Below are positions 9,935 through 27,438 of a stretch of 64,000 bases of DNA, one piece after another. The notes below the pieces were generated by a model, which was given only the letters and a program-made list of their open reading frames with translations, made no database searches and was not told the DNA's origin. How positions within the stretch are numbered: the first letter of the stretch is position 1; the number at the start of each line of letters is the position of its first letter. The position numbers were made by a program, and so were the translations under genes. This DNA is from Thermoplasmata archaeon (lineage in GTDB: Archaea; Thermoplasmatota; Thermoplasmata; Lutacidiplasmatales; UBA184). Location: positions 12,740-76,739 of the forward strand of contig DASRSW010000076.1 in assembly GCA_035656275.1 (NCBI GenBank). Reading direction: 5' to 3'.

Positions 9935-9963
9935 GGGCCCGCCGGGACTCTTGCGGCGGGCCC
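9935..9963 (-). terminator. GC-rich hairpin 19 nt downstream of the stop of 9982..10815
   Basis: gggcccgccg (9935-9944), ggactcttg, cggcgggccc (9954-9963) form a perfect 10-bp stem. There is no adjoining T-tract, so a terminator function is uncertain. Confidence 0.3.
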
Positions 9964-9981
9964 GTTCGGGTCGGGCCGGGT

Positions 9982-10815: not shown

Positions 10816-10846
10816 GGCAATCCTCCAGTGGGGTAATGGCGTTCAG

Positions 10847-10855
10847 CTATAAAAA
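10847..10855 (-). promoter_or_regulatory. TATA-like box (TTTTTATAG on the minus strand) upstream of 9982..10815
   Basis: The AT-rich box lies 32-40 nt upstream of the ATG at 10815. An SD-like GGAGG (reverse complement of 10822-10826) sits between them. Confidence 0.35.
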
Positions 10856-11488
10856 CTGTCCCAGAAAGTACTACACATTGTACGACGTAATGCGAGGAAT
10901 CCACTGAAGAACTAGCCACAACTCCGTCAAGGGGCTCCTGCACACCCGGCCTGCCGGTTGACCAGAGCAATGTGGGTTGGAGTTAGAAACCGCCGCAGAA
11001 TGCACGCCGTTTAGAACGTATAAGCAAGTCAGTCGTGATCCGGTTCATAGATCCTCGTGCCGTGAGAACCTCCGACCCAAACGCCCGCCGGAGATGGATC
11101 GCCGACGGTTTCGATCGGACGGCGACACACATCTCTCTCGGACTGGAGTCTCGAGGGGCGCGTCGCGGTTCCTACGCGAAACCTAAGGGTTGATGCTCGT
11201 CCCGCGAACTCGTGTTCTGCCTCAGTCGATTCATGAAATGTGTAAACCACCGCTGAAACGCGACCATGAATCCACAGCAGCTCGGTGCGTTTTCCGTCGG
11301 AGCGCGCCGGTGGCGGACCGGTATGCGATTAGCTCAACAACACACTCGCATCGGGCCAGGACCCGAGTAGATGACCCGACGGGGGTCGTTTCGTCATGTC
11401 CACGTCCCGCCGAGCTCCGCGGTATCCACCCCCCCGGGGATCTCCCCCAGCCCCCGAGTGATACGAGTCGTGAACGGGAACCCGGGAT

Positions 11489-11656
11489 TCAAGGCTTGTC
11501 GGGTACCAGCGACTGCTCAAGCAAGAGCTGGGCCTGCGATGAAGCCGTTCGACGCTCCAGGGCCGCACGCCTGCGAAGAGCCCTCAGGAGACGGGGCTCG
11601 AGGTACACGGTCAATGGAACCCTTCGCTGGTTGGGCGACTTCGGAGACCTCGCCAT
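11489..11656 (-). CDS. Ribbon-helix-helix protein, 55 aa (missed by the ORF track); paralog of 29907..30071
   Basis: My own translation is MARSPKSPNQRRVPLTVYLEPRLLRALRRRAALERRTASSQAQLLLEQSLVPDKP*. Confidence 0.6.
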   Translation of the reverse strand: MARSPKSPNQRRVPLTVYLEPRLLRALRRRAALERRTASSQAQLLLEQSLVPDKP

Positions 11657-11946
11657 GCACTGCGGCTGCCTTCTGGCGCGGCAGCTCGGGACCCGGATCC
11701 AAAGCTGCCGAAGGCAGGAGTTCCAACTGAACGCCGGTATTTAGCCATTGGTTTGAACTCTAAACAGTGGCACCTAGGTGGGATCGCGGGCTGATTCGCT
11801 GCTCAGAGTCTCACCGGTGGAAGAGGACGTTGAGTGTGTAGGGCGGAGTACAGTGCTCTGCGGCCACTATAGGAACGCTGGTCCGCAGTTAAGAACAGGG
11901 GAGAAAGTCTCATGGGTTGGCTCGCCATTCGGACCTCGGGGGCAGA

Positions 11947-14310
11947 ATGGTCACCCCTCTTCGCGAGCTCATAGCGTGGGCCGCCTGCCTTGCCGTTCTC
12001 TCGACAGGCCTGCTCGATTCCGCAATGGGATCGAATGTGCCTCTCGCGACGGAGGATTCGGGCCCGGCGGCCCTACTTAACCAAGGGTCGAATCCCTCTC
12101 CCGCCCAAGGCCCGGATTCGGTCCATCTAAGCTGTTCCTCGAATCCTGACGCCGTCAGTCGATGTGGGCTAGGCCCGCAGGCGAACTCGGCTGGAGGGAC
12201 TCAGGGGGCCGGGTGGCTGAACATATCGGCCCGCGTCGGAACTCCCCCGACCCCGCGGAGCTTTGGACGGAGCATCGCCTACGATCCCCGCGACGGGTAT
12301 GTGGTGATGTTCGGCGGTGACGCACCTACGGGCGGGTATCTTTCCGACACGTGGGCGTTCAGCAACGGCAGCTGGAAGGAACTCACCACGAATGCGTCTC
12401 CCCCCGCTCGCGACCACTCTACCCTAGCGTGGGACCCTGTGGACCAGTACCTCGTCCTCTTCGGGGGCTCCGGAAGCGTGGTTTACAACGATACCTGGGC
12501 ATTCGCGAGGGGCGAATGGACCCAATTGCACCCTCCCGCGGCCCCTTCTCCGCGATGGTCCGCCGGAATGGTGTGGGATGCACGGGACGGGACGATTCTA
12601 CTGTTCGGAGGTTGCGCCGCGGGCTCCGAGCAAAACGATACCTGGTCGTTTCTCCATGGGAACTGGACCGAACTCTCCCCGACGACGTCGCCATCGCCCC
12701 GGGGTGATTCGGGAATGGCCTACGACGCGGTCGACAGTCAGGTCGTGTTGTTTGGGGGACTGAGCGCGAATTGGGGGGCACTGGATAACGACACTTGGGC
12801 CTACTCCGCCGGTACCTGGACCGAAATCAGTTCCCCGGGTTCCCCTCCCGCCCGGTATGACCCTTCGATGGCATTCGACACAGCGATTGGCCAAGTTGTG
12901 CTCTTCGGTGGTGAAGGAGCCCTCGCTAGCCTCGGGGATACTTGGGGGTACGCCAACAATCGTTGGGTTGGCCTCTCGGAGTCGAACGTACCGGCCTCGC
13001 GGTCCTTTGGGATGTTGGTGTACGACCCGGACCTGGATGGCCTCCTGCTCTACGGAGGGGCCACGGTGGGCTCCGGGACTTCTACTGAGACTTGGGAATT
13101 CTACACCCTGAACCTCACGGCTCGAGTTTCCTCCCCATCCGAAGTTGCACCAGAATCGTTGGATGCCACCGCGAATTCGACGGGAGGGGTGAATCCGATC
13201 GCGTATCTCTGGCGGTTTGGTGACGGGGGCTCCTCCAACCTCTCCTCGGCCACCCACGCGTATCTCGAGCCTGGAACCTACCAGGCCACGATCACATCAA
13301 GCGATTATTTCGGTGTGACGAGTGAGCGGAGTTTTACGGTCATCGTCCTGCCCCTGTTGGTGGTACGTGCGGGAATTACCCCGTCCTTCGGCTCTGTTCC
13401 CCTAGCGGTATCCTACTACGCCGTAGCCAGCGGGGGGATCCCGCCTTACCAATACAACTGGACCTTGGGCATCGACTCTTGGTCGAACGCCTCGAATGGC
13501 AATGTAACGTACCCGTCGGCCGGCGACACTATCGTCACACTGAGTGTGCGCGACTCGGGGGGCCAAGCGCTCCAGAAGGAGTTCGTACTCGTCGCTCTCG
13601 CACCCACTCCGACCAACCTCTCGGTCTCCATCCTGGCGTCCCGTTCGACCTGCGACGTTCCCTGCGCTTTGACCTTCACGGCGACGGTTGGGGGAGGAGT
13701 CGGACCCGAAACGTATGCATGGGGGTTCGGCGACGGCGCTGGGTCCTCGGCTCCGGCACCTTCGCACCAATTCCTCTCGGCTGGAAACTATACGGTCGCG
13801 CTCGAAGTGCACGACAGTGCGACCGGCGTCGGGCTTTCCAATGTCTCGATTAGTGTGAACCCGTCGCTAACAGTGATTCCGCACGCTTCCGTACTTGTGG
13901 GCCCGACTCCTCTCCTCGTGACGTTCACGTCGAACGTGGGCGGTGGGGCTGGCCCTTACCGAGTAGCCTGGACATTCGGCGATTCGAGTTCCCTCGAATC
14001 GAGCGGAAGCCAGCACACCTATACTTTTCCCGGAACCTACACTGTGAGGCTCAGCGCGGTCGATTCGACCGGGACGGAGGCGAACGGCACCCTCGAGATC
14101 GTAGCGCTACCGACTGCGACAAGTGTTGGAGAAGCGGGGATGGGCGGGAGTCTTCTCACCCTGGCCATTCCAGTCTCGATCGCTATTGCCGGCGGGGAGG
14201 TGGCTCTCGGACTGCTGCTGAGTAAAGTCCCCAAGAAGCCCATGGGGGCGTCGGCCGCCCAGCCGGGCCAAGCACCCCGACAGGGCGATTCCAGTTCTCG
14301 CCGAGAATGA
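11947..14310 (+). CDS. Kelch-repeat beta-propeller plus ~4 PKD domains; surface protein with a C-terminal TM anchor
   Basis: Track ORF 11917..14310, with the ATG at 11947 giving the signal-like sequence MVTPLRELIAWAACLAVLS. About six blades carry FGG...DTW motifs. PKD signatures include WRFGDGGSS...HAYLEPGTY, WGFGDGAGS...HQFLSAGNY and WTFGDSSS...HTYTFPGTY. The C-terminal TM is LAIPVSIAIAGGEVALGLLL. Confidence 0.9.
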   Translation: MVTPLRELIAWAACLAVLSTGLLDSAMGSNVPLATEDSGPAALLNQGSNPSPAQGPDSVHLSCSSNPDAVSRCGLGPQANSAGGTQGAGWLNISARVGTPPTPRSFGRSIAYDPRDGYVVMFGGDAPTGGYLSDTWAFSNGSWKELTTNASPPARDHSTLAWDPVDQYLVLFGGSGSVVYNDTWAFARGEWTQLHPPAAPSPRWSAGMVWDARDGTILLFGGCAAGSEQNDTWSFLHGNWTELSPTTSPSPRGDSGMAYDAVDSQVVLFGGLSANWGALDNDTWAYSAGTWTEISSPGSPPARYDPSMAFDTAIGQVVLFGGEGALASLGDTWGYANNRWVGLSESNVPASRSFGMLVYDPDLDGLLLYGGATVGSGTSTETWEFYTLNLTARVSSPSEVAPESLDATANSTGGVNPIAYLWRFGDGGSSNLSSATHAYLEPGTYQATITSSDYFGVTSERSFTVIVLPLLVVRAGITPSFGSVPLAVSYYAVASGGIPPYQYNWTLGIDSWSNASNGNVTYPSAGDTIVTLSVRDSGGQALQKEFVLVALAPTPTNLSVSILASRSTCDVPCALTFTATVGGGVGPETYAWGFGDGAGSSAPAPSHQFLSAGNYTVALEVHDSATGVGLSNVSISVNPSLTVIPHASVLVGPTPLLVTFTSNVGGGAGPYRVAWTFGDSSSLESSGSQHTYTFPGTYTVRLSAVDSTGTEANGTLEIVALPTATSVGEAGMGGSLLTLAIPVSIAIAGGEVALGLLLSKVPKKPMGASAAQPGQAPRQGDSSSRRE

Positions 14311-17207
14311 CCGAGTGGATCTGGGGGTCGGTGATGAACCGGGCAGGGTCTCAATCCCACCCGACCTCTTCTGGGATTGGAATGCGTCGACGCTTCGCAC
14401 CAAGCACCGTGGTGCGCACATGCTTTACGATCGCCATTTCAGTCTCTCTGCTTGGACTTTCTCCCCCGTCGGTGGCATCGGCGATTACTTCTCTGACTGT
14501 CGCACCTGGAGCCGAGAGTCCCTTAGGCTCAGGCACGACCCTCGGAGGGGTCGCCGAACTACTTCCCCTGCCCTTGATCCATTCCTCCTCATCCGAAGGT
14601 CTTCACTCGAGCTGGGGTTCCCATTCTACCATCGTAGGAAGATCGGCCCCCCCGCTCAATCAACTTCCCCGGCTCGCCCCAGCTGCGAATCTCACGCTGG
14701 GGTGGGTCAACCTGACATCTACTGACGGTTCTCCTCCTCCCTCAACTTACGGGGCAAGCATGGCGTACGACCCCCTCCTCCCGGGAACTGTGTTGTTCGG
14801 AGGTGAGGTCGATGGGCTTCCCACGAATGTCACTTGGATTTCCGCGAATCTTTCGTGGACTCACCAATCGTACGCCCCCGGCCCCTCACCTCGGTCCGGT
14901 GCCCAATTCTCATACGATCCGGGGACGGGCTCATTGATCCTGTTCGGCGGGTGGGATGGAACGCGTTATCTCAACGATACCTGGTCGTTCTCGGGACGGG
15001 GATGGGCCAATCTCACTCCAGCGTTGTCGACGACCCCCCCCGCGAGGGCCAACGGCTCGCTGGCGTTCGACTCGCGCGATAGTGTATTGGTTCTCTTCGG
15101 GGGGTGTGGGTCCACCTGCCCATTGGGCGACACCTGGCTGTTCAACGAGACAGGGTGGTCCAGTTGTTGCTCAACATTTGGACCCGGGCCGAGGTCAAGC
15201 GCCGGCCTGACCTTCTACGCCGCCAACAACGAACTGACCCTCTTCGGCGGCTGTTCCGGACGGGCGGGACTCAACGACACGTGGGCCTTCTCTGCTGGCA
15301 ATTGGGCTCAGATCACTCTCGCGGGAGGACCTCCGCCTTCGTGTCCAGCCGTATTGGCGCGAACCGCGACTCCGGGTTTCGATGGGCTCGGCCTCCGATC
15401 GGGGGGGGAGACCTGGGTGTTGAATTCCTATTCTTGGTTCAACCTTACAGCGCAAACGGTTCTGACGCCGCCGAGCTCGAGCTCTTGCGACTTCGCACCA
15501 TCCGACGTGCAAACCCTAGACCTTTTGGTGTGCCCTGACGCCGGACTCAATTCGACCTCCCTTGTCTGGAGCCTGGGCGTCCCGATCATTCTGACGGTGG
15601 CTGTTACGCCCGTCAGATTGGATGTGAATCAATCCGTTAGTTTCAATATGTCCGGTCTCTCCGATGACTACCCACTCACCTTCGAGTATCTCGGTCTCCC
15701 CCGCGGTTGCTCCACTGTTAACTCGTCGGCATTGGACTGCACTCCAACCGGGTCCGGGCAGTTCGTGATTACCATCGTCGCTAGCGACGAGGTGGGACAG
15801 AGTGAGAGAGCGCTCGCCAGTCTTCAGGTAAATGATGCGCTCCGAGTTGAAGCACTACGAGTCGGCACCGGCAACCTAACGGTAGGAACGAATCTATCGG
15901 TCGACACTCTCTTCCGAGGGGGCACTCCGGGACTGAATTTCTCGTACGATGGCCTTCCCCCCGGCTGCCCGTACACGAACGCGTCTGCGTTTACCTGCCG
16001 CCCGAATGTAAGCGGAGTCTACGACCTGCGAGTCCTTGTGAGAGACGCCGCCGGTGAAGCGGGAACCGCGGAAAGGGTGATACAAGTCGACTCTGCCCTC
16101 TCTGCCCTTTCCTTTTCGGCGGTTCCGTCGACGCTCGACATAGGAGAATTGACGAGGCTGACCCTCTCGTCTGCGGGGGGTACCCCACCTCTGCAGTACA
16201 GTTACTCAGGGTTACCGGAGCCCTGCACCACGCTTAGCACTCCGGTGCTCTCTTGCCTTCCGTATCAGGCCGGGATCTTCCCGATCCAAGTGTCGGCCGA
16301 AGATTCCTCGGGCGCTACTCTCACTTCCGTTGTCCAACTCCAAGTGAACCCCGACCTAGGTGGATTGGTTCTTCTTCCTAGTTCCTCAACCGTCGAGCTG
16401 GGACAATCGCTTCAATTCGAGGCGCGATTTTCCGGAGGAACCACGCCGGTTACCCTAACGTTCCAGGGCATACCGGGATGTGTTGGGGCGGGGGACCTGA
16501 ATTTCAGCTGTCGTCCATCGGTGGCGGGCTGGTTCTCCGAACGGCTGACGGTCCGTGATTCGACGGGGGCGAGCCTCGCGACCTTGGCCGTGGTTGACGT
16601 GATTCCATCCCTCCAGGCGGAGTCGCTTTCGGCCGAACCCTATCCCGTGGAACAAGGTAGGAGCACGATCTTCTCGATAGGAGTCGTCGGGGGGGTTCCC
16701 CCCTTCGTTACTCGCGCGACGGGCCTCCCCCTTGCATGCGCGCCCGCCCCGAATGTGAGTTCTTGGACCTGCACCCCGCCCGAGCCGGGGGAGTTCCCCA
16801 CCGTTCTCGAGGTGACGGATGGGGCCGGAGTCCAAGTGAACTCGACCTTCTCCCTCAGTGTCCTTGACTCACTTAAGGTGCGGCTCATCGCCCTCCCCAT
16901 GCCCCCGTACTCCAGTGAAGTCGAGCTCTCCGCCTCCATCTCCGGCGGATCCGGTCCCTTCACGTACGAGTACCTTGGACTGCCTCCGGGGTGCTCCGCA
17001 CCGTCCGCTGGGAAGGTTTACTGCAATTCCGATGCACCCGGTGAGTATCACGTCGAAGTTGACGTGACGGACTCGATCGATGGCGTGAACAGTTCCGCCA
17101 CGGAGGTATCCGTGGGTCCCGGTCTTGGGGCCGTGACTTTGCCGGCAGTCCTCGTGGCAGCGGGAGGCGCTTTCGGAATTTGCGTATTGGCCCGGGGTCG
17201 ACGCTAG
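14307..17207 (+). CDS. Kelch-repeat propeller plus ~7 Cys-bracketed Ig-like (He_PIG-like) repeats; surface protein with a C-terminal TM anchor
   Basis: Track ORF of 966 aa. An ATGA overlap joins its start to the upstream stop (14307-14310). The repeats follow SGG.P..Y.Y.GLPPGC....L.C.P...G.Y...V.V.D. The C-terminal TM is LPAVLVAAGGAFGICVLA followed by RGRR. Confidence 0.9.
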   Translation: MTEWIWGSVMNRAGSQSHPTSSGIGMRRRFAPSTVVRTCFTIAISVSLLGLSPPSVASAITSLTVAPGAESPLGSGTTLGGVAELLPLPLIHSSSSEGLHSSWGSHSTIVGRSAPPLNQLPRLAPAANLTLGWVNLTSTDGSPPPSTYGASMAYDPLLPGTVLFGGEVDGLPTNVTWISANLSWTHQSYAPGPSPRSGAQFSYDPGTGSLILFGGWDGTRYLNDTWSFSGRGWANLTPALSTTPPARANGSLAFDSRDSVLVLFGGCGSTCPLGDTWLFNETGWSSCCSTFGPGPRSSAGLTFYAANNELTLFGGCSGRAGLNDTWAFSAGNWAQITLAGGPPPSCPAVLARTATPGFDGLGLRSGGETWVLNSYSWFNLTAQTVLTPPSSSSCDFAPSDVQTLDLLVCPDAGLNSTSLVWSLGVPIILTVAVTPVRLDVNQSVSFNMSGLSDDYPLTFEYLGLPRGCSTVNSSALDCTPTGSGQFVITIVASDEVGQSERALASLQVNDALRVEALRVGTGNLTVGTNLSVDTLFRGGTPGLNFSYDGLPPGCPYTNASAFTCRPNVSGVYDLRVLVRDAAGEAGTAERVIQVDSALSALSFSAVPSTLDIGELTRLTLSSAGGTPPLQYSYSGLPEPCTTLSTPVLSCLPYQAGIFPIQVSAEDSSGATLTSVVQLQVNPDLGGLVLLPSSSTVELGQSLQFEARFSGGTTPVTLTFQGIPGCVGAGDLNFSCRPSVAGWFSERLTVRDSTGASLATLAVVDVIPSLQAESLSAEPYPVEQGRSTIFSIGVVGGVPPFVTRATGLPLACAPAPNVSSWTCTPPEPGEFPTVLEVTDGAGVQVNSTFSLSVLDSLKVRLIALPMPPYSSEVELSASISGGSGPFTYEYLGLPPGCSAPSAGKVYCNSDAPGEYHVEVDVTDSIDGVNSSATEVSVGPGLGAVTLPAVLVAAGGAFGICVLARGRR

Positions 17208-17325
17208 TCGACAGCCCAAGTGCCATAGGCCTTGAGTCGCGTGATTGGGACGGAGCCGCCCAGATGCGGGGCCCGCCGACGAATCGGTCCTCTACCTTGC
17301 CGGGCGAAAGCAGGCATCCGGACCG

Positions 17326-19644
17326 CTATTCGACTTTGTCATTGGGCGGGGAGCCCGAATCCGGCGCGACTCCCTCATCGCCGGCTGGCCGGGCACCCGA
17401 ATCATCCGAATTCGACGCCCGGCGACGGCGGCTGTAGATCACCCATGAAACCACTCCTCCCCCTGCCGCCGCCAGCACGAGGCCAACTCCAAGCAGCAGC
17501 CATTGCGTGGGTGTGAGGCCGCTCGAATGGACGGGGGTCGGCTGTGTCGGGAGCGCGTTGACGGTCAGCACGAACGTGGATACGCGCGTGAATCCGACCG
17601 AGTCGCGGAGTGTGAAGGAAACCGTGAAGTTTCCGGGGGTGGCGAAGGCGTGGGTGCTGTTCGGGCTGAACGAAACGGCCCCATCGCCGAAGTTCCATGT
17701 GAGATTGTAGGGTGTGGTTCCGCCGGAGGCAGTCGACGTGAATCGAACGGTGGTGTTCACAACGGTCGCTGTAACATTCGCGTTGGCCACGACGATTGGA
17801 TCCGGGTGAACCAGCACGTTGAGTACGGCGCTGTCGTTCACACCCAGCGCATCGGTGACCGTCACCGAGGGCGAGAATGTCCCCGCCCTTCCGAAGGCGT
17901 GGGATGCATTCTCGAGCAGGCTGACGTTGCCGTCGCCAAACTTCCAGACAAAAGTAAACGGCGCCGTCCCGCCCGCCGCGGTCCCATTAAAGAAGTCGCG
18001 AGTCCCCACGTCCGTGACGTTGCGCGCCAGGGTACCCGCGGCGACGGGGGAGGGGTTCACGCGGACGGTGACCGACGCATTCGCGGCAATACCCCTCGCA
18101 TCGACCCCGACAAAATGCGCGGTGTAGGTCCCGGCCGCCCCATAGATATGGGCGACCGACTGAACATCGCTGAAGTTTCCATCTCCGAAGGTCCAGTTGG
18201 AAATGATCGGCGCCGTTCCACCCGTCACGGAAACCGTGAACAGCACCGGCACCCCCGAAGTGACTGGGTTCGGGGCTACCGCGGGAATCGCCGTCGGGTC
18301 GGGGTTGACCTGGACTTGGCGGGTTGACGTTGCGTTGGCGCCAACCTGGTCACTGATCTTCTCCGTCACCAGGAACGTCCCCGGCTGGCTCGGCCGGCAC
18401 GAGAAGTTGAACGCCCCGGTAGGCTGAGCGCACCCCGGCGGGACGGATTCAAACCGCGCAGTGTAGGGGGAAACTCCCCCCTGGGCGGAGGATCCGATAG
18501 CGACGGTCTGATTCAGGTCGATCGTACTACTCGAGAGGGTAAGCACTTGCGTCAGCGGGGCCGATTCGAGCCAAGTGTCGGTCATCGTCCCCGATAGGGT
18601 AACGCCCCCGAACATCAAGGTGTATCCATCTGCGCCATCGTAAGTCATCTGGGCCTCATCCCTCGGGGGCGGGGCGTGGGCGATGAATGGGGTCTGGTTG
18701 GTCCAGGAGCCGTTGGAGTACGCCCAGGTATAGTTTCCGGCAACCCCGCCCGTGAGCAGGATCCCTTCACGGAACGCTGCGTCGTAGGAAAAGCCCGTAG
18801 GAACACCGGCGGGGGGAAGGACCGCCGGTGTCTGATGGGTCCACTGGCCCTGAGTGAATGTCCACATGTCGCCATAGACTTGGGTCCCATCCGGCGAGAT
18901 CCCCCCGAAGAGGACCATCCGCGAGAGCTGCGGATCGTAGAACAGGGCTTCGTGTTGGCGGTTGGGAACGGAGTAAGTCGTTGACAGTTGTGTCCACGTC
19001 CCGTTCGAGTACGTGTAGGTCGAGCAATCGATCCCGGCGGACGGCAACACAAGCAGCACCTTCTGGAGCGCTGGGTCGTACGCCATCCCAGCCCCGGTGC
19101 CAGAGTTAAGGGTCTGGTTAACGGACCGTTGGGTCCAGTTACCGCCGGAGAAAGACCATGTCCGGCCCGTAGCATTCAGCATCAGGACATATTGGTCCGC
19201 CGCGTCGTAGGTCATTGGAACCAGGTTGTCGGCGGCCGGTTCGGTCGCGCACTTTGGAGCCGAGGTAGACCCGGAGCAAATCTCTCTCCACGTACCGTTC
19301 GCGTAGCTCCACGTATCCGGCAGGTAGGGACCCGTTCGAGGCACGCCCGAGAACAGCAGAACATAGTGATCGAGGGGATCGTAGGTGACTGCCGCGCCGG
19401 ATCTTGCTCCCGGACCTCCCGATACCGTCCAGTTCGTCCAGTTCAAGTGGAGGTTACCCGAAGCGAGCGGCGCCTCCGCCTTCAAGAGCGAGGAGGTTGC
19501 CGCTGACCGCGGCGACGTGCCTGGGGATTGGGTTTGAGTGCAGGAGAAGGTTCCGAGGCCCTGAGCTAGGACCAGTAGGACAGTGATCAGTGCAGGCAAG
19601 TGGGTGGCTTTCGGGTGGGCCGGCAGGATTCCGGGACCCCGCAT
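17326..19644 (-). CDS. Kelch-repeat propeller plus one Ig-like repeat plus ~4 PKD domains; surface protein with a C-terminal TM anchor
   Basis: Track ORF of 772 aa. PKD signatures are WTFGDGNFS, WKFGDGNVS and WNFGDGAVS. The TM is WLLLGVGLVLAAAGGGVVSWVIY followed by RRRR. N-x-S/T sequons are numerous. Confidence 0.9.
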   Translation of the reverse strand: MRGPGILPAHPKATHLPALITVLLVLAQGLGTFSCTQTQSPGTSPRSAATSSLLKAEAPLASGNLHLNWTNWTVSGGPGARSGAAVTYDPLDHYVLLFSGVPRTGPYLPDTWSYANGTWREICSGSTSAPKCATEPAADNLVPMTYDAADQYVLMLNATGRTWSFSGGNWTQRSVNQTLNSGTGAGMAYDPALQKVLLVLPSAGIDCSTYTYSNGTWTQLSTTYSVPNRQHEALFYDPQLSRMVLFGGISPDGTQVYGDMWTFTQGQWTHQTPAVLPPAGVPTGFSYDAAFREGILLTGGVAGNYTWAYSNGSWTNQTPFIAHAPPPRDEAQMTYDGADGYTLMFGGVTLSGTMTDTWLESAPLTQVLTLSSSTIDLNQTVAIGSSAQGGVSPYTARFESVPPGCAQPTGAFNFSCRPSQPGTFLVTEKISDQVGANATSTRQVQVNPDPTAIPAVAPNPVTSGVPVLFTVSVTGGTAPIISNWTFGDGNFSDVQSVAHIYGAAGTYTAHFVGVDARGIAANASVTVRVNPSPVAAGTLARNVTDVGTRDFFNGTAAGGTAPFTFVWKFGDGNVSLLENASHAFGRAGTFSPSVTVTDALGVNDSAVLNVLVHPDPIVVANANVTATVVNTTVRFTSTASGGTTPYNLTWNFGDGAVSFSPNSTHAFATPGNFTVSFTLRDSVGFTRVSTFVLTVNALPTQPTPVHSSGLTPTQWLLLGVGLVLAAAGGGVVSWVIYSRRRRASNSDDSGARPAGDEGVAPDSGSPPNDKVE

Positions 19645-19646
19645 TC

Positions 19647-21890
19647 CTATTCTCCCCGGATCCTTTCGCGGGGCCTGGGAGCTCCACCACGCAAGGCAGT
19701 CGCGACACGAATCGCCTGCGGCATGGCCTGGGGTTCCGGACGGAGTGCGACACGACTGAATCCCGCCGCGAGAAGCCCGGCGGCCGTGGCCTGGAGGGAG
19801 AGCGGCGTGCCACCCGCAGACGTTAGCAGGGCTATCGGTGACGAAACGGGTACTGGGGACGCCACTGGTGAGGGAGGCGTCGGGACGGGCGGGCCCAACC
19901 CAGGCGGGGGCGGCGGCGATGTGGAGGGAGGTCCCGACTGTGTGCTCGGAATCGGAACGACAGCGACGAGCGCCGGGGGATACGAAACCCCACGAATGGT
20001 TGAGTTACCGTAGGGGTCGAATCGGAATTCCGTCAGGTTTGCCACCACCGAAGAAGACCCGTCCACCATACAAACGACAGTTGTGCACGCGTCGACCGCG
20101 ACCTGGGCAGGGGGAGGGGTGTTAACTGCCACGTAGAAGGAGGCGGACCACTCGTCCCCCAAGAACAGAACGTCGTTGAGTGGGTTCGTGCTCCAGCTCC
20201 AGTCCACGGAGGCCACTCCCCCGGTTTTGACTGTGAAGTTCACGACGCCGGGCGGACAAGTTGACGGTAAACCCCCACGGACGCACGCCGTCACGATGGG
20301 TCTTGACAGGTCGACCCCCACCCCCTTCCAAGGGACAAACCGGAACACCGGCCGGTCCAGCCAGTGAGTTGGTCCGTAATGGAGAGTTGAGTTGGACGAG
20401 GAATTGTAGTCGAACGGCATTGTGATCACTTCCGCACGTAGGCTTACTCGAGCGTCGATCACCCCCGCAGGACAGTTCGGCACGGTCACGCTGCAGACGC
20501 TGGTAGGTGTGACGGAAATAGTGAGCGAGATGTTAGACGGGGCGATTCCGAGGATCCAGGTGTCACCTAGGTTCCCAGTCGAGTAAAGAGGAAACGGAAC
20601 GCAGCACGCCCAGCCCCCGAAGAGCAGCATTCCGCCTTCCGTTGGGTCAAAAGTGAATCCCGCCAGCTGCCGACCCGCTGGTCCTTGGATTCCCAGGTCG
20701 ACCCAACTGGTCCCCGTGAATCCCCACGTGACGTTGGATTCGTAGCCGGTCGTCCGGTCGGCGCCACCGAAGAACAAGACGATCCCGTCGATGGGGTCAA
20801 ATGCGGCGACCGGGTGGAGCTCAAAGGGCGTTCCGACATTCGGAAGTTTCGTCCAGCCATTTCCGGCGAATTCCCAGGTAGCGTTCGAGCCGGCCGTAGG
20901 CGACTCCTCCACTAGCAGGACTTTGCCCGCGGTGCCGTCATACGCGAGGGCCCCTTCCGGAACTTCGTACGCCGAAGGTCCCCCGGAACTGAGCAACTCC
21001 GTCCACGATCCGCGAGAAAAGCTCCAAGTGTCGTTGTAGCCCCAGCCACCCCAGAGCAGAACGGCCGTGGACGCCGGGTCGAACACCATGAACGTCCCAC
21101 TCCGAGCTGGGGGGCCAGAAACGTTCAGCTCCGTCCAGGCACCTCTGGAGAACTTCCACGTCTCTCCCGAAGGATAGTGCACCCCGTTCGAGATGTTCTG
21201 GAAGAATCCTCCAAACGCCAGAACGTACCCGTCGGTCGAGTCATACGTCATTGCAGGTGAGCAAACGTTGGTAGGGCCCGGAATCGAAAGGTTCGTCCAG
21301 ACTCCCGCCGAGTAGATCCAGGAGTCTGTCAAGCAACGACCATTTCCGACGTTGGACTTGTTTGCAAAGGTTCCCCCATAGAGGAGAAGGTAACCGTCGG
21401 CGGCATCGTACGCCACTCCCGGCTGAGTCCGATTCCCCGGCGTCATCGTCGGAAAGAGCTCCTTCCAATCGGCTCGCAGTGGGGAAATGAGAGGGTTGGG
21501 ACCAACCGATCTCTCGGGTGTTGGAAGTAGGCATGCTGACTGAACCAGTGGAGTTCTCGAAGAAGGGCAGATCGCTTGGGAGGGTACGTCAATCTTCGCG
21601 TCACTCGTCGCGTGGTTCGCCCAGAGTGGGATTCCGCGCAAACTCTGAGTGTTGGCGTTCCAAACGAACTCGGTGGATACTAACACCATGAAGACCAGCG
21701 TACAAAGTGCTACAGCTCGAAACACGCTGTGCGCTCTGGGAGCCGAGAGGTGGTGAATTCGCCTACGCTCCGGGATCCGCTTCCAGCGGCCACTCAGCTT
21801 GGGTACAGCTTCCCCCTGATCAAGGGGTTGGGCCGGGCGGGTGCCAGACGACGCCAAGGCCGAAAGACTGGGGCGAACCTCCAATGGCAT
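19647..21890 (-). CDS. Kelch-repeat propeller surface protein with a beta-rich C-terminal region, a Pro-rich stalk and a TM anchor
   Basis: Track ORF of 747 aa whose stop lies 2 nt before the start of 17326..19644. Blades carry FGG...D[TS]W motifs. The stalk is PPSTSPPPPPGLGPPVPTPPSP. Confidence 0.85.
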   Translation of the reverse strand: MPLEVRPSLSALASSGTRPAQPLDQGEAVPKLSGRWKRIPERRRIHHLSAPRAHSVFRAVALCTLVFMVLVSTEFVWNANTQSLRGIPLWANHATSDAKIDVPSQAICPSSRTPLVQSACLLPTPERSVGPNPLISPLRADWKELFPTMTPGNRTQPGVAYDAADGYLLLYGGTFANKSNVGNGRCLTDSWIYSAGVWTNLSIPGPTNVCSPAMTYDSTDGYVLAFGGFFQNISNGVHYPSGETWKFSRGAWTELNVSGPPARSGTFMVFDPASTAVLLWGGWGYNDTWSFSRGSWTELLSSGGPSAYEVPEGALAYDGTAGKVLLVEESPTAGSNATWEFAGNGWTKLPNVGTPFELHPVAAFDPIDGIVLFFGGADRTTGYESNVTWGFTGTSWVDLGIQGPAGRQLAGFTFDPTEGGMLLFGGWACCVPFPLYSTGNLGDTWILGIAPSNISLTISVTPTSVCSVTVPNCPAGVIDARVSLRAEVITMPFDYNSSSNSTLHYGPTHWLDRPVFRFVPWKGVGVDLSRPIVTACVRGGLPSTCPPGVVNFTVKTGGVASVDWSWSTNPLNDVLFLGDEWSASFYVAVNTPPPAQVAVDACTTVVCMVDGSSSVVANLTEFRFDPYGNSTIRGVSYPPALVAVVPIPSTQSGPPSTSPPPPPGLGPPVPTPPSPVASPVPVSSPIALLTSAGGTPLSLQATAAGLLAAGFSRVALRPEPQAMPQAIRVATALRGGAPRPRERIRGE

Positions 21891-21923
21891 GACCGGCCCC
21901 CTTTCAAAGAAGGCCGGGGTTCA

Positions 21924-24900
21924 TTAAACGTACATGCTGCTGTCGTTCCAGTAGGGCTTTCCATTGGGATTCGGCGTATTGAAGTACAGCCACGATCCAC
22001 CGTTTCCAGTGCCAATCGCTCCCGGCGCCGGGGCTCCCGGAGCGTAGTACCCTGTCGCAGCGGAGCCTCCGAAGAGGGTCACATATCCGTTGGGTCCCGC
22101 GTTTTGGTCAAAGGCCATCCCCATCCCCCATTCGGCCGGTGGAGCCCACGTAGTCGGAGCTCCTGTCCAAATTCCGACGTGGTACCGCCAGGTGTCTCCG
22201 AGGGGAATCCCGCCGACGGTAGCACCACCGAAGAGGATGACAATTCCGTCCGTCAGGTCGAATGCGATGGCGGCATCGTAGCGGGGAGCCAGTGGGCCCG
22301 AGGCACTCACTTGAACCCACCCGGTGGAAAGTGTGAATCGCCAGGTGTCTCCAAAGACCACACCCCCCGCCCCTTGTCCGCCGTAGAGGACGACGTACGC
22401 ATCCGTCAGGTCAAACGTCATGGCCGGTCCGAATCGCGCCGTCGGAGCGGTCGGAGTGGTGACGAATGTCCAAGCGCCGGTGATGAACGACCACGTGTCG
22501 CCGCACGCGGGGGCGGCGGCGCCCGTGCACCCAAAGCCCCCGAATAGGATGACCCGAGAATCGACCACATCCCACGTCATGCCGACGTCGGAGCGGGCCG
22601 AAGGCCCCGCGATCGCAAGCTGCGTCCATGTAGCCCCGTTGAAGGTCCAAGTGTCCGCCAGGGTGAGCGGGGGGACGCAAACGACCACGACGGCTTTACA
22701 GCCGCCGAAGAGGACGAAATACCCATCCACGGGGTCGAACGACAATCCCGCATCCCACCGAGGGCCCGGGCCGCACCCGGCGCAGAACTCCCTCCATCCG
22801 CCGTTCGTGAACAACCAAGTGTCGGACTGCCCCGAGAGGGGTCCACAGGGCCCGATGATGGTGTTCTGGCAGCCCCCAACGAGAAGCACCGTATTCCCTG
22901 CCGAATTGGCAGCAAGGCTCGCACCGTACCTCGGGGCGGGCGCTGGGGACTTCGGGATTTGATTGAGGATAGGAGCGGGGTACCAGTTGCCGGCGTAGAA
23001 GCCCCAACCAAACTCTCCCATCAGCTTGATGGCCGGCCCAACTCCTCCGAACATCAGGACGTATTGGCCGTCGAGGTCGTAAGTGCTGACGGCATCGTAC
23101 CGGCCAGGCGGAGACGTCGTTGGAGTGATCTTGTACCAGTTTCCGGCAGCGTACCCCCACGTGTCCGCATACGGGCACGTCGAGCCGCACCCACCGAATA
23201 AGACGGCCTCATTGTCGACCTCGTCAAACGACATCGTAGAGCCCCAACGGGCGGCGGGCGGGGCCGTCGTACAGGAGGCGGTCAAACACTGGGTCCAGAC
23301 ACCGCCCACGAACGTCCAAGTGTCCTTGAGCGGACAAGTCGTTCCGCATCCGCCGTAGAGTAGAATGTACGAATCCCGCTCGTCCCAGGTCATTGCGGCC
23401 CCGTAACGACCGGGAGGGCCAGATGTGGGCCCCGCCGCCCAAATGTATCCGGCCGCCGGGCTGCCAGTGAGTTCCCACGTATCGTGGAGCGGGCAGGTGG
23501 CCGCGCCGCATCCACCGAAGAGCACCGCATAACCGTCCGTTTCATCGTACGCGAATGTCGCGCCTTGCCGAGCGCTCGGCGGCCCGGCCCCCGTCGGAGT
23601 CTGAGGGGTCCAGACGCCCGCGGCGTAGGACCACAGGTCGTTGAGGAGGGTCCCCGAGGTCGACAGACCGCCGAAGAGCACGACCGAGTCCGTCCCACCA
23701 CTCGGCGTAATGTTGGTCATGCTCGCGTTCATCCGTGAACTAGGAGAATTCGCGGCTGTCAGAAGCGGGGTGTTCGACACCCACATGTAGGTCGGTCGGT
23801 AGGCAGCGAAATCCCAGGTCGAAGCATTTCCGCAACTGCTCCCGCAGCCCCCGAACAGCACGTCGGTCTTGTCGTTGAAATCGCGTGTCATGGTGGCGCC
23901 ATACCTAGCAGACGGGAGCGGGGGCGGCCAGAGTTCTCCCGCGAACGCGCGATTCGGCGAGTGCGAAGCCAACCAAGTGTCCCCGATAGATAGTCCAGTA
24001 TCGGCCGAACCGCCGAACATGACCTCGCCGCCCGAGATCCCCACTAGCGAAGTGTCGTACCGCGGTGGGATCGGGGCGGCGGGCGACGGGCGGAAGAACC
24101 CATTGATGAACGCGACGTACCCTGGAGGTGCCATGAGCTGCTGCCAGCCATTCGCGCCGGCTAGCGTGGGGTAGATCCACCAGTCCCCGCCATGGACATC
24201 GGTGGCGTTACCGAGAATAGTTCCGTCCGGGCCGGCGCCGCCGTAGATCAGCAAGCCATAGTCCGTCGTCACGGTGTTGTAGAAATACGAGGTCCCGCCC
24301 GGGTAGTACCTCGGAGACGGACAGATTCCGGGTCCGGCGCTACAAGAAGTCGCACTCAGCAGCTGCGCCCAAGCCCCCGCAGTCCAGTACCATGTGTCAT
24401 TAAGCGCACCGTTCGGGCAGCCACCGGAACCCGACGAGCACCCTCCGAAGAGCAAGACTACCGCGGTCCCTGAACTGACCTGCGCCGTCGGGACCGGCAG
24501 AGCCGGAGAAACCACGATCTGGGCGTACGCCATCGCCATTCCATAGCGACCCGCTGGCTGGGGCGACGGGGTCAACTGGGTCCAAACCCCTGCGAGGTAC
24601 TTCCAGGTCTGTTGATACGGACAGGTCGTCCCACATCCCCCGAATAGGAGGACGTAGCCATCCCCCTTGTCGTCGGCGAGTCCGGCGGCGTAGCGGACCG
24701 CGGGCTTGGTGGCGGGGTTGACATTGGTCCACGTGCCCACGAGCGCGGCAGGATCAGTGTAGTACCACGTGTCCTGCTTCATGTGCGAGGCCGTGCTGTC
24801 GCATCCGGGCACGCTTTGAATCCAACCGGGCGGCGAGACTGTGCACCCGCCAAACAACAGGGTGTAGCTGTCCTCACTGTCGTAGACCATGCTCGCATCG

Positions 24901-25496
24901 TGACGAGCGGACGGGCAGTTTCCCGCATGCGCACAGTTCAGGGCAGTCGTGACGTTCCACCACGTCCCGGCGACCTCGTTGTACTGCCAGGTATCACCGA
25001 AGACGTCACCGGTCGAATTCGCCCCTCCAAATAGCAGTGCCCCCTCGACGGTTCCATTCATGAAGAGGGCGATCGCGGCCCCAAACCGTGCTGCTGGGGA
25101 TTGCAAGTGCGGGAACACAGGAGGAGGCGGCCCGACCAACGGATGAGGGGAAGTGCGCGGCACGCTCGCGGAAGAACAACTCATCCCGCCGCCGGAAGAA
25201 GAGCAGGTCATCGGGAGACCAGCGGCGGGACCTTCGCCTCGGCCAAGGGAGGATATCGCCTGTGCCATCAATGTGGTGCCGGGGCGCGCAGCGGAGCCGA
25301 GAACAAGGTGAGACTGTGCCGACGCGTGACCAACCGAGGGCGGAATCGCTCCGGCGGGAACGCAGAGCAGCGTAACGATAAGTACCGACCCTAACGCCCC
25401 GGCGAGAGTAGTCCGAACCCTGCGCCGCCAGCTCGACCACCCAACCTGCCTGGCCCTGCTCGTCCCGTCAACCGCGGCCTCCCCCTTCGCCCGCAT
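21924..25496 (-). CDS. Giant multi-propeller Kelch-repeat protein (~18 blades), with an N-terminal anchor and no PKD, Ig or C-terminal anchor
   Basis: Track ORF 21924..25640, with the ATG at 25496 preferred because it precedes RRRVRTTLAGALGSVLIVTLLCV. The [GNSAH]DTW[xFY] blade motif recurs about 18 times (GDTWQY, QDTWYY, NDTWYW, HDTWEL, KDTWTF, ADTWGY, SDTWLF, GDTWRF and others). Confidence 0.9.
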   Translation of the reverse strand: MRAKGEAAVDGTSRARQVGWSSWRRRVRTTLAGALGSVLIVTLLCVPAGAIPPSVGHASAQSHLVLGSAARPGTTLMAQAISSLGRGEGPAAGLPMTCSSSGGGMSCSSASVPRTSPHPLVGPPPPVFPHLQSPAARFGAAIALFMNGTVEGALLFGGANSTGDVFGDTWQYNEVAGTWWNVTTALNCAHAGNCPSARHDASMVYDSEDSYTLLFGGCTVSPPGWIQSVPGCDSTASHMKQDTWYYTDPAALVGTWTNVNPATKPAVRYAAGLADDKGDGYVLLFGGCGTTCPYQQTWKYLAGVWTQLTPSPQPAGRYGMAMAYAQIVVSPALPVPTAQVSSGTAVVLLFGGCSSGSGGCPNGALNDTWYWTAGAWAQLLSATSCSAGPGICPSPRYYPGGTSYFYNTVTTDYGLLIYGGAGPDGTILGNATDVHGGDWWIYPTLAGANGWQQLMAPPGYVAFINGFFRPSPAAPIPPRYDTSLVGISGGEVMFGGSADTGLSIGDTWLASHSPNRAFAGELWPPPLPSARYGATMTRDFNDKTDVLFGGCGSSCGNASTWDFAAYRPTYMWVSNTPLLTAANSPSSRMNASMTNITPSGGTDSVVLFGGLSTSGTLLNDLWSYAAGVWTPQTPTGAGPPSARQGATFAYDETDGYAVLFGGCGAATCPLHDTWELTGSPAAGYIWAAGPTSGPPGRYGAAMTWDERDSYILLYGGCGTTCPLKDTWTFVGGVWTQCLTASCTTAPPAARWGSTMSFDEVDNEAVLFGGCGSTCPYADTWGYAAGNWYKITPTTSPPGRYDAVSTYDLDGQYVLMFGGVGPAIKLMGEFGWGFYAGNWYPAPILNQIPKSPAPAPRYGASLAANSAGNTVLLVGGCQNTIIGPCGPLSGQSDTWLFTNGGWREFCAGCGPGPRWDAGLSFDPVDGYFVLFGGCKAVVVVCVPPLTLADTWTFNGATWTQLAIAGPSARSDVGMTWDVVDSRVILFGGFGCTGAAAPACGDTWSFITGAWTFVTTPTAPTARFGPAMTFDLTDAYVVLYGGQGAGGVVFGDTWRFTLSTGWVQVSASGPLAPRYDAAIAFDLTDGIVILFGGATVGGIPLGDTWRYHVGIWTGAPTTWAPPAEWGMGMAFDQNAGPNGYVTLFGGSAATGYYAPGAPAPGAIGTGNGGSWLYFNTPNPNGKPYWNDSSMYV

Positions 25497-25808
25497 GCCC
25501 TGACCTCTTAGGTCGGGGGCACGCGGACTCACGAGTTCCCGGAAGTCTCCGACTCCTGGGTGTACCCGACCGTGTGATGACGTAACACGCACCACTATAT
25601 GGACCTGCTGACGACGCGTCCAGTTTTCTATGGTGAACACATGCTGATAACAGGATGTAGATGCGGTTCACGATTTCCGCCGCCTGAGGTCCCGAATGCA
25701 CGCGAGCAGCTATTTTGGATTGCGACACAATAGAGAAGAGCGGTCCCACACCTCGCTAGCGTACTAGTTGTCTCGAGTATTCGGAGGGGAAACCTGATCG
25801 AGCAGCCT

Positions 25809-26423
25809 CTACTCGCGAGCCTGCGTGTTACCGTGCGCCCTGCGAACTCGAAGGTCCGGAGCCCCTAGCCGGTCGCGGAGCTTCTCGTGGAGGGCGCGGA
25901 GCGCGAGGACCTTCTGTTCGAGGTCCTCGAGGATGACGCGGTTCACGCGAGCGCGGAGCTGCGACTCGGTCTCGCCGTTCGCGGCGTAGGAAGCGAACCC
26001 GCTGCGGGCCGACTCGAACGACCCCGCGTTGAAGACGAGCTGGCCGGAGGCCCAGGCGCGGCCGGCCTCGGGCGACGGGGAGGCGTCCTCGTCGGCGTGG
26101 GCGATCTCGGGCGCGGCGTCGGGACGGCGGGGAAGTTCACTCGCCGGGGTGAATCCAGAGACCTCGGCGAGCTTCACCCTGGGTCTGGCGGACGCTCCTG
26201 CGCGATAGCTCCCGAAGTCGGGCGAGTGCTCGCGCAGGTAGACGGGGTAGGGGCGCGGGGCTCCGAAGTCGACGACGTAGCGGATCTCGGGGTCGCGGGG
26301 GATCGGCTGGTTGCAGCCGCAGGAGCACTTCCTGGGCCACCGGTTGCCGGTGACGGTCCGGAGGCGGGGCCCGGTCGGCGAGGGCTGTTCGGGTGTGGCG
26401 GATTCGATGATGCTGGAGGGCAT
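25809..26423 (-). CDS. Family A hypothetical protein, copy 2
   Basis: Track ORF of 204 aa and a close paralog of 4292..4906. Its start codon lies inside the palindrome at 26421-26456. Confidence 0.8.
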   Translation of the reverse strand: MPSSIIESATPEQPSPTGPRLRTVTGNRWPRKCSCGCNQPIPRDPEIRYVVDFGAPRPYPVYLREHSPDFGSYRAGASARPRVKLAEVSGFTPASELPRRPDAAPEIAHADEDASPSPEAGRAWASGQLVFNAGSFESARSGFASYAANGETESQLRARVNRVILEDLEQKVLALRALHEKLRDRLGAPDLRVRRAHGNTQARE

Positions 26424-26456
26424 CGTTTCACCTCGCGGGAGAGGGGTGAAACGATG
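26421..26456. promoter_or_regulatory. Palindromic element, copy 3
   Basis: CATCGTTTCACCT, cgcgggagag, GGGTGAAACGATG give 12 bp plus one G-T pair. The mirrored plus-strand ATG (26454) opens only an 11-codon ORF. Confidence 0.8.
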
Positions 26457-26505
26457 GAACTCACCTGCAAGCCGTTACATTCGCCCTGATTCATGTCGGC
26501 GGTCG

Positions 26506-27198
26506 ATGTCCGAACCCCTCCCGTCGGATCGACTCGAGTTCGACCTCTCATCCGACGCGGCTGGAGAGTCAAAGGCTCAGCGCTCCTCGATTGGACCCAT
26601 CGTCGGGACGTACGTCGTCGCCGGCGTCGCGATCGTGGCGCTGGGGGTCTTCACCCTTACCGGGTCGATCGTCGGCACGACTCTCGAAGGGTGGGCTGCG
26701 ATCGTCAGCGGAATCGTAATCGTCGCCGGGGGAACCGTCTACGTTTCCTTGTACCTCGGGAAGGACGAAGTGATTCGCCTCGCCGTCGACGGCCGTGGCC
26801 TCACGTTCACCTGGACGAAAGGCGAAGCCACCTCCCTCGCGTGGTCCGACCCGGGGCTGAAGGTGGACCTGAATCACTTGGAAGGGGATCCAACGGAGGT
26901 CCTGCCCGCTGACGACCCTCGCAATCAACGGCCCTGGTGGATCGACGTCTGGAAGGCCGGAGCCTCGACCATCGCATTGGAGACGACCCTACCGGAGGGT
27001 GCCTACCGTGCCGTCCTCGAGGAGGCAGGTCGAAGGGTGCCGGGGGTCCAGACCACGCCCGCGGCCTACTTCTGGTGGCAACCCTCGCCGAGAGTTCCGG
27101 GTGAAGTGCATCACCGGTCGGGTTCGAAGCTCAAGCCCGGTGAGCGCACGAACGGAACTATCACCCGAATCAGAGGGACTTCGGCGCACGACAGATAG
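26506..27198 (+). CDS. Family B hypothetical 2-TM membrane protein, copy 2
   Basis: Track ORF 26311..27198, with the ATG at 26506 (MSEPLPSDRLEFDL). It is a 230-aa close paralog of 4990..5682. Confidence 0.8.
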   Translation: MSEPLPSDRLEFDLSSDAAGESKAQRSSIGPIVGTYVVAGVAIVALGVFTLTGSIVGTTLEGWAAIVSGIVIVAGGTVYVSLYLGKDEVIRLAVDGRGLTFTWTKGEATSLAWSDPGLKVDLNHLEGDPTEVLPADDPRNQRPWWIDVWKAGASTIALETTLPEGAYRAVLEEAGRRVPGVQTTPAAYFWWQPSPRVPGEVHHRSGSKLKPGERTNGTITRIRGTSAHDR

Positions 27199-27240
27199 GA
27201 CCAGGAGACCCGAAGAGTTGCCGCGCGCCGGAATCTCCGC

Positions 27241-27405
27241 CTAACGGATCTCCGGTCCGCGGAGGATCGGCTGATCGCAACCACAAGAGCACCTTCGAGG
27301 CCGCAGGTTTCCGGTGACGGTGCGGAGGCGGGGGGCTCCGGAGGCAGGGGCGTCGGTCGGCGTGGGGCCGTCGGCGTTGGCGGGTTCGATGTTGCGGAAA
27401 GGCGT
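27241..27405 (-). pseudogene. Truncated family A copy (N-terminal 54 codons only; start codon ATG changed to ACG)
   Basis: My own translation is TPFRNIEPANADGPTPTDAPASGAPRLRTVTGNLRPRRCSCGCDQPILRGPEIR*. It keeps the TVTGN..CSCGC motif, and no ATG, GTG or TTG is in frame. Confidence 0.5.
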
Positions 27406-27438
27406 CGTTTCACCTCGCGAAGTGCAGGTGAAACGATG
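27403..27438. promoter_or_regulatory. Palindromic element, copy 4
   Basis: CGTCGTTTCACCT, cgcgaagtgc, AGGTGAAACGATG. There is a single arm change, at the former start codon. Confidence 0.7.

Follow-up and report, generated by a model that had tools for sequence, protein, structure and literature searches.

Five long adjacent open reading frames (ORFs), here named K1 to K5, take up 13.7 kb (positions 11917-25640) of a 64,000-nucleotide stretch of Thermoplasmata DNA (the window, G000:C76:12740-76739, where G000 is the source genome and C76 the contig). We consider it rather probable, if some way from certain, that three of these genes, K5, K4 and K3, form a conserved cassette of surface-displayed propeller proteins that has been recombined between strains, and that K1 and K2 are unrelated genes lying beside it in the same low-GC accessory region. 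This reading is built on the architecture of the proteins, the synteny and distribution of their genes, and a mosaic pattern of identity with one related contig, all of which are direct observations. Acid soil and peat contain abundant, uncultured Thermoplasmata whose envelope is hardly known. Here, part of a large Kelch/PKD surface repertoire forms a conserved cassette of three genes and is not a set of loose paralogues. This cassette behaves as exchangeable accessory DNA. The locus offers a candidate surface complex of several subunits in archaea, and a candidate source of surface variation.

The source genome comprises 2.23 Mb on 95 contigs and is an estimated 96% complete. The nearest named relatives of the window proteins come from metagenome-assembled genomes labelled "Thermoplasmata archaeon". 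An initial annotation of the window had placed five adjacent Kelch genes at 11917-25640, and the ORFs lie exactly there, with their Kelch character supported by Pfam, weakly so for K4. Two genes are on the plus strand and three on the minus strand, and the two sets are convergent:

11917..14310, plus strand: K1, with a likely start at ATG 11947 and a purine-rich site just upstream.
14307..17207, plus strand: K2, with another possible start at ATG 14382.
17326..19644, minus strand: K3, the third gene of the cassette.
19647..21890, minus strand: K4, the second gene of the cassette.
21924..25496, minus strand: K5, the first gene of the cassette; its longest ORF reaches 25640, and the likely start, ATG 25496, is preceded by the ribosome-binding site AGAGG.

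The order K5-K4-K3 recurs on a single strand well beyond this genome. Nine other loci were compared: six from metagenomes (L028-L033), one from a genome of the same genus (G079) and two from closer relatives (L044 and L045). The cassette is complete in L028, L029, L030, L031 and L033, and again in G079; the contig of L032 ends after its K4-like gene, and L044 and L045 carry K4-K3 without K5. The BLAST matches to the individual proteins run from end to end. In the metagenome loci, identity is 37-46% for K5, 33-34% for K4 including its C-terminal domain, and 31-36% for K3, and in G079 it is 45-48%, 32% and 36%, respectively. As a yardstick, aconitase is 62-67% identical within the genus. A K4 orthologue occupies the second position in all nine other loci, and K3 orthologues occupy the third in L028, L029, L030, L033 and G079 (31-36% identity). 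The K4-K3 pair is consequently the constant core of the nine loci, allowing for the contig end that cuts L032.

The gene junctions are as tight as first described, with an ATGA overlap between K1 and K2 (14307-14310) and a 2-nt gap between K4 and K3 (19644/19647). The K3 start lies 2 nt past the K4 stop, and its ribosome-binding site, GGGGAG, lies inside K4. The K4 start follows the K5 stop by 33 nt, behind a short hairpin. This hairpin (21891-21923; stem CCGGCC/GGCCGG, loop of 13 nt) occupies the K5-K4 gap, overlaps the G-rich site before the ATG, and is identical in L044. When the 200-nt upstream regions of K5 and of six orthologues were aligned, no conserved promoter motif appeared. K5-K4-K3 is an old, conserved three-gene cassette and is probably co-translated. 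A literature search found no paper describing such a three-gene cassette, the triple propeller of K5 or the domain family of K4. The 2002 report by Jing and colleagues on surface proteins of Methanosarcina mazei is likewise said to describe no three-gene cassette, triple propeller or K4-type domain.

All five proteins begin with a hydrophobic segment followed by Kelch blades, as had been proposed, with the model fold confirming Kelch in K4. The Pfam models were PF24681, PF13418 and PF13415 for Kelch, and PF18911 and PF00801 for PKD. Three proteins exceed the Kelch cut-off of 50 (K1 107, K2 92.2 and K5 174.8 bits), K3 passes through Kelch_4 (30.5 against a cut-off of 21.6), and K4 falls below the sequence cut-off (30.6 against 50 bits). 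PKD domains score strongly in K1 (131 bits, 3 stretches) and K3 (116 bits, 3 stretches) and weakly in K2 (50.7 bits overall, with no stretch significant alone); Pfam gave no PKD match in K4 or K5. An NCBIfam scan of all five proteins added nothing specific. Blades were counted with a single-blade hidden Markov model (HMM), alongside hhhGG and DxW blade motifs, since a whole-propeller HMM gave overlapping, shifted matches and was dropped. The single-blade model finds 6 blades in K1, 6 in K3, 6 in K4 and 18 in K5; K2 is the only protein with fewer than six, 4 being detected.

K1, K2 and K3 each combine a secretion signal, a propeller and a PKD or immunoglobulin (Ig)-like stalk in one chain, and each ends in a transmembrane helix and a basic tail. 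In K1, a signal peptide and six-bladed Kelch propeller are followed by three Pfam PKD stretches and, by eye, one further PKD-like segment. In K2, a propeller of 4 clear blades and additional degenerate ones leads to about seven Cys-bracketed Ig-like repeats, the transmembrane helix and an RGRR tail. K3 has a signal peptide, a six-bladed Kelch propeller, one Cys-bracketed Ig-like domain, three PKD domains, the transmembrane helix and a cytoplasmic tail. The initial annotation had credited four of the genes with such a stalk, helix and tail, which is right for K1, K2 and K3 and wrong for K4, whose stalk is of another kind; K5 is stalkless. No CTERM model of NCBIfam (PGF-CTERM and similar archaeosortase sorting signals) matched K1-K5, no search for an archaeosortase gene having been made in the genome. 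It is very doubtful that these are transmembrane signalling receptors relaying an outside signal to the cytoplasm: the tail of K4 is conserved, as such a role might demand, yet the cytoplasmic tails are short (~30 aa in K1, 5 aa in K2, ~35 aa in K3) and match no domain in Pfam or NCBIfam, and K5 has no anchor.

K5 consists of a signal peptide, a small two-Cys hairpin and 18 Kelch blades, with neither stalk nor C-terminal anchor. Its early description as an array of ~18 blades, apparently three propellers, is borne out by the blade HMM and by a structural model. AlphaFold models of K4 and K5 were built from orthologue alignments; that of K5 (pLDDT 80.4, pTM 0.77) has 72 strands, equal to 18 four-stranded blades. 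We read these as three six-bladed propellers, because the count is 3 x 6, because each third of the model matches a solved six-bladed Kelch domain, and because of the propeller tree. In that tree, each K5 propeller clusters with the propeller in the same position of its orthologues (support 100/100, 100/99 and 100/100). About 25 full-length homologues of K5 are known, of 1090-1215 residues and 38-49% identity.

In K5 and its orthologues, Cys pairs bracket the loop after the GG motif, with the pattern FGGCGxxCP and longer forms; it is probable that disulfides staple these loops and that they lie on one propeller face. Most K5 blades (window 21924-25000) have such a bracketed loop, and one or two also occur in K1 and K2. 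A short Cys-x(8-12)-Cys element also lies between the signal peptide and the first blade of K5 (25100-25300), K4 (21500-21600) and K1 (12100-12160). In K5, its two cysteines, C98 and C107 in the 1190-residue numbering, are nearly invariant among orthologues, and a candidate signal-peptidase site, A-S-A/Q, can be picked out by eye.

The K4 model has a transmembrane helix (53-74), a propeller (140-450, pLDDT 85-94) and an all-beta domain (450-650, pLDDT 70-88), followed by a proline-rich linker that is disordered and, at the C-terminus, a short helix. The fold matches six-bladed Kelch domains (Foldseek E 6e-14, TM score 0.75 to LZTR1). K4 lacks the PKD/Ig stalk once attributed to it. Its propeller is followed by a beta domain of ~200 residues that contains six invariant cysteines, then by a poly-Pro linker and by a tail that is conserved, SLQAxAAGxLAAG. 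The C-terminal ~255 residues match nothing in Pfam, and a sequence search of the PDB returned nothing below E 0.18. In the Foldseek search with the whole model, matches to the propeller dominate over any to this domain.

Another reading makes the proteins secreted enzymes with a Kelch fold, for instance sugar mutarotases of the NanM/YjhT type or the copper radical oxidases galactose oxidase and glyoxal oxidase. Relatives are indeed annotated "galactose oxidase-like", and YjhT (PDB 2uvk) stands at rank 33 among the Foldseek matches to K4. A copper radical oxidase has a seven-bladed propeller and a copper site of two His and two Tyr, with a Cys-Tyr cross-link. The propellers here have six blades, not seven; the orthologue alignments of K4 and K5 contain no invariant His and only one invariant Tyr each (Y317 in K4, Y480 in K5); and Pfam and NCBIfam gave no match to a catalytic family. 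An enzymatic role is scarcely credible.

The C-terminal domain of K4 defines a family of its own. It has 105 cluster representatives among 1.84 billion representative proteins and occurs in 22 of 401 sampled Thermoplasmata genomes, all 22 from one GTDB family. Nine more ORFs of the source genome have this domain together with the proline linker and the tail, with an insert of ~300 residues (no Pfam match) replacing the Kelch propeller. Among them are C20:3923-6211, C68:1185-3386, C30:1181-3418, C37:75809-77944, C78:2805-4916 and C37:20456-22774, which encode secreted proteins of 700-770 aa with no Pfam match and a tail of the form ...SLQAAAAGFLGAGF...GRFE. Three such relatives are each followed, on the same strand, by a large surface protein. 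On C20 and C37, this protein is the immediate neighbour and is anchored by a transmembrane helix, with a YVTN-type propeller by eye on C37; on C68, a Kelch-PKD protein lies 1.3 kb downstream of C68:1185-3386. Beyond synteny, it is chiefly the recurrence of this pairing of a K4-type domain with a surface protein that leads us to suspect a physical partnership.

The five genes belong to a dispersed family. The genome has 26 Kelch-propeller ORFs on 17 contigs, of which K1-K5 form the largest cluster; five adjacent members of 26 among ~2000 genes is far beyond chance, by estimate rather than by a computed test. The number of Kelch matches per genome varies within the genus from 0 to at least 13, and this genome has the most first-look Kelch candidates among 201 Thermoplasmata genomes.

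The initial annotation had seen in the island a paralogous arsenal and had proposed a propeller phylogeny to detect duplication in situ. Such an arsenal, grown in place by tandem duplication and divergence, would account for five adjacent genes of one family and for the short stretches at blade motifs that the island genes have in common (families D5 and D7). A maximum-likelihood tree of 57 propellers, including the seven of the island, speaks against it. The island label falls in seven independent placements for seven propellers, or seven label changes, the same as with shuffled labels. The propellers of K3 and K4 and each of those of K5 cluster with orthologues from other organisms, K3 with the third genes of other cassettes (support 99/90). 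The best paralogue of each of K1-K5 lies outside the island, and no pair in the 26-member family exceeds 43% identity. We give hardly any credence to growth in place, and the arsenal as first conceived falls with it.

K1 and K2 are neighbours of the cassette: unrelated further members of the Kelch family that happen to lie convergent to it. They are not counted as cassette members because K1-like genes elsewhere stand alone, and the idea of K1-K2 as a second conserved pair was ruled out on the same evidence. The nearest relative of K1 is its paralogue C68:4679-7624 (40% identity, tree support 99/91). Among 5.8 billion proteins, K1 has no homologue above 45% identity, and a scan of genome contigs gave two Thermoplasmata matches at 38% identity, plus PKD-only matches in Bacteroidota. 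The best paralogues of K2, on C88 and C1, are 28-31% identical, and the tree does not place it firmly. On a forest-soil contig, a K1-like gene (L046:10259-12910) is convergent to a PQQ-type propeller-PKD surface protein, and propellers of mixed type side by side seem common in these archaea.

Several features indicate that the locus is accessory and mosaic:

1..37000: low-GC accessory region, GC 0.56-0.65 against 0.679 for the genome, extending left of the window to the contig start.
4305..5251: left copy of the A/B direct repeat (families D1, D2 and D4), from the repeat comparison.
25831..26767: right copy of the A/B direct repeat, directly upstream of K5.
17660..19760: near-identical tract shared with contig L044, spanning the K3 ectodomain, from identities in 150-nt windows.
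21891..22020, minus strand: end of K5 (last ~17 codons), its stop, the short hairpin and the K4 ribosome-binding site, retained in L044.

Of 179 other genomes of the same family, only 9 have an orthologue of K5 (E<1e-80). The cassette has different flanks at each locus, with a transposase or serine recombinase next to it at two. The A/B repeats said to bracket the island are real direct repeats; they lie 21.5 kb apart, are 74-87% identical, and flank the segment that carries it. The low-GC stretch runs ~50 kb, from the contig start to about 37 kb of the window, and contains all six Kelch genes of C76. These six have GC 0.61-0.64 and third-position GC (GC3) 0.66-0.75, against GC 0.66-0.72 and GC3 0.79-0.90 in the other 20. 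Aconitase, the nearest core gene, has its 62-67% identical counterparts in ten same-genus genomes; its surroundings were compared in four of these, and none of its window neighbours recurred there within 20-40 kb. In one same-genus genome, the gene at L023:5150-5743 (G010:C1), ~25 kb from aconitase, is homologous (68% identity) to the multicopy gene of family A at window 25809-26423, with nothing else around it syntenic.

Other surface genes share this low-GC region. At 6-9 kb left of the window, C76:3685-6600 encodes 971 aa with a double Kelch propeller, a Cys-bracketed Ig repeat and a transmembrane helix; C76:8097-9884, also left of the window, encodes 595 aa with an NHL/YVTN-type propeller, Ig-like domains and a transmembrane helix. 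At its other edge, a 406-aa ORF (window 36119-37339) has weak matches to BNR/sortilin-type propellers, below the Pfam cut-off. A PHROGs search of ten small ORFs of the region found no viral hallmark and one weak spanin-like match.

A step in composition of this kind might arise if the low-GC left 50 kb of C76 came from a related organism and had been wrongly joined to a high-GC core during assembly or binning. GC steps from ~0.62 to ~0.69 within C76, all six low-GC Kelch genes are on this one contig, and the RmuC gene at its start (PF02646, 305 bits) is without a homologue in ten same-genus genomes. This explanation is nevertheless improbable: the low-GC part has multicopy genes and repeats that are also found on other contigs of the genome, and the GC of the cassette is below that of its flanks at other loci too. 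Moreover, whichever organism the DNA belongs to, the genes exist and so does the cassette.

The nearest relative is L044, a Logan contig from SRR16630567, which bears probable signs of exchange. Compared in 150-nt windows, it is 63-87% identical (mostly 77-87%) to window positions 21410-19760, then 95-100% identical (mostly 99-100%) over the 2.1-kb tract 19760-17660 that covers the K3 ectodomain, and then falls to 84, 71 and 43% at the K3 3' end. Identity therefore moves from ~80% to ~99% and back inside 4 kb. Synonymous divergence follows the same course, with a dS of 0.83 in K4 (pS ~0.5) and a pS of 0.00-0.09 in the K3 core. Because of this 25-fold step between adjacent genes, the K3-ectodomain tract probably reflects recombination or recent transfer. 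Although L044 lacks K5, it retains the last ~17 K5 codons, the stop, the hairpin and the K4 start, and nothing else of K5; the segment 21891-22020 thus marks a breakpoint at which K5 was deleted or replaced. Where the source genome has K2 and K1, L044 has a different Kelch-Ig-PKD gene, convergent to K3 and 33% identical to it.

On both sides, the K4-K3 pair of L044 is flanked by a repeat that is also multicopy in the source genome. This repeat is a gene segment of 190-300 nt (peptide ...LPDDSRDADE...RWGI...), present at L044:1-169, 804-993 and 6000-6295, with copies in the source genome at C76:2405-2667, C37:3979-4267, C37:16940-17235 and C47:5125-5414. It may serve as a substrate for recombination. 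The view of the island as a variable locus is thus supported by its patchy spread, low GC and flanking repeats, and by the different gene content and probable recombination tract of L044. What the initial annotation had missed is that K5-K4-K3 recurs elsewhere as a conserved cassette.

Several features fit extracellular, glycosylated proteins, among them the sequons and Cys pairs. The relevant cysteines are the pairs around the K5 blade loops and the six invariant ones of K4. In K1-K4, N-x-S/T is 3-4 times commoner than in shuffled sequences, and the Kelch family as a whole averages 2.37 sequons per 100 aa, compared with 0.31 in the remaining proteome. Across the 182 blades of the genome's Kelch family, sequons gather at three fixed positions: N-D-T-W (70 blades), N-G-S/T-W or G-N-W-T (44), and just past the second Trp (43). 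An STT3 homologue is present in the genome. It is the sole STT3/AglB-type match (C70:56222-57409, 28.5 bits) and lies within a 2316-aa open frame, unusually long for an oligosaccharyltransferase.

Sequons in such numbers would also suit a non-specific coat, in which the proteins are bulk parts of a protective glycoprotein layer, the archaeon being an acid-soil one that is wall-less or S-layer-poor, have no specific ligand, and are kept as a cassette only for co-expression. The 26 family members take up ~3% of the coding DNA by estimate, sequons are built into the blade repeat family-wide, and the genes are under purifying selection. Set against this, a bulk component would be expected in most relatives, and the cassette is found in ~5%. 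That three distinct architectures stay in strict order at 31-48% identity points to a specific assembly, and the loop faces bind ligand in all the solved Kelch relatives that were matched. We regard a coat as somewhat unlikely, though by no means far-fetched.

We therefore return to the exchangeable cassette. From their sequences, we infer that these proteins are displayed on the surface, glycosylated and form a complex, and that they bind rather than catalyse. K3, K4 and K5 would be subunits of a single N-glycosylated complex on the outside of the membrane, with K3 anchored by its C-terminal helix and raised on its Ig/PKD stalk, and K4 anchored by its tail on a proline-rich stalk. K5, released by signal peptidase, would be retained as the outer subunit by binding K3 and K4. 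As in the matching solved Kelch domains, the propellers would bind a ligand at their loop face, with N-glycans at fixed blade positions shielding the remaining surface. On this reading, recombination between related strains adds the cassette, cuts it short or re-assorts it. The domain types suggest a function in adhesion or recognition. We speculate further that K5-K4-K3 is a heteromeric surface receptor or adhesin, that K4-type proteins are general partner subunits, and that the cassette or single ectodomains are swapped to alter specificity towards episymbionts, viruses or substrates; this extension is, on present evidence, unlikely.

A number of observations weigh against the cassette as described. 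K5 is dispensable, given that L044 and L045 carry K4-K3 alone, and the third gene of L031 is closer to K1 than to K3. The case for a complex is argued from conserved synteny and coupling. The K4 tail proposed as an anchor is weakly hydrophobic and under the cut-off for a transmembrane helix. The initial annotation had described all five proteins as rich in sequons, and K5 departs from the excess seen in K1-K4, having 10 against 6.0 +/- 2.2 in shuffles, which is no clear enrichment. The values of dN/dS against L044, 0.22 and 0.28, indicate purifying selection; over whole genes they give no hint of an arms race. Finally, the mosaic is drawn from one short Logan contig, which could be a partial chimera of co-existing strains.

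Among known systems, solved structures offer the closest likeness for the propellers alone. Against the six-bladed Kelch domains of LZTR1 (PDB 9MF0, 9MEZ) and KLHDC2 (PDB 6DO4), the K4 and K5 propellers reach Foldseek TM scores of ~0.75 (range 0.64-0.76, E ~1e-13). LZTR1 and KLHDC2 are cytoplasmic substrate adaptors of ubiquitin ligases, with 15-22% sequence identity to K4 and K5, whereas the K proteins are predicted to be extracellular, with disulfide-bracketed loops and sequons in the blade repeat. Integrin alpha chains resemble the proposed complex in architecture only, having a propeller head, Ig-like legs, one transmembrane helix, a short tail and a place in a hetero-oligomer. Integrin alphaV does appear among the long, low-scoring Foldseek matches to K4 (ranks 43-49), with a TM score of only 0.2-0.25. 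The integrin propeller is seven-bladed and of the FG-GAP type, with no detectable homology to the K proteins, and the relation is one of analogy, not membership.

Archaeal surface proteins come nearer in overall design. Source databases already call relatives of K1-K5 PKD or kelch repeat proteins of Thermoplasmata. The surface-layer proteins of M. mazei (Jing et al. 2002, Structure 10:1453, cited as ref. 67 in PMC10354927) are reported to be secreted and to have a beta-propeller followed by PKD or Ig-like domains, and their authors proposed a kinship of design with metazoan cell-surface receptors. The M. mazei propellers are of the YVTN type, whereas those of K1-K5 are Kelch. Strain-specific surface proteins of the ARMAN archaeon Mia14 are also large and secreted, join a PKD fold to Kelch or YVTN propellers, account for a substantial part of the genome, are regarded as products of horizontal acquisition, and have been given a proposed role in cell-cell interaction (PMC5498576). 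Mia14 differs in belonging to another phylum (DPANN) and in its CARDB-like fusions, and no conserved three-Kelch operon is reported for it (PMC5498576). The cassette, the triple propeller and the K4 domain are thus no new kind of system; they extend a type known since 2002, the archaeal surface proteins that combine a propeller with PKD domains.

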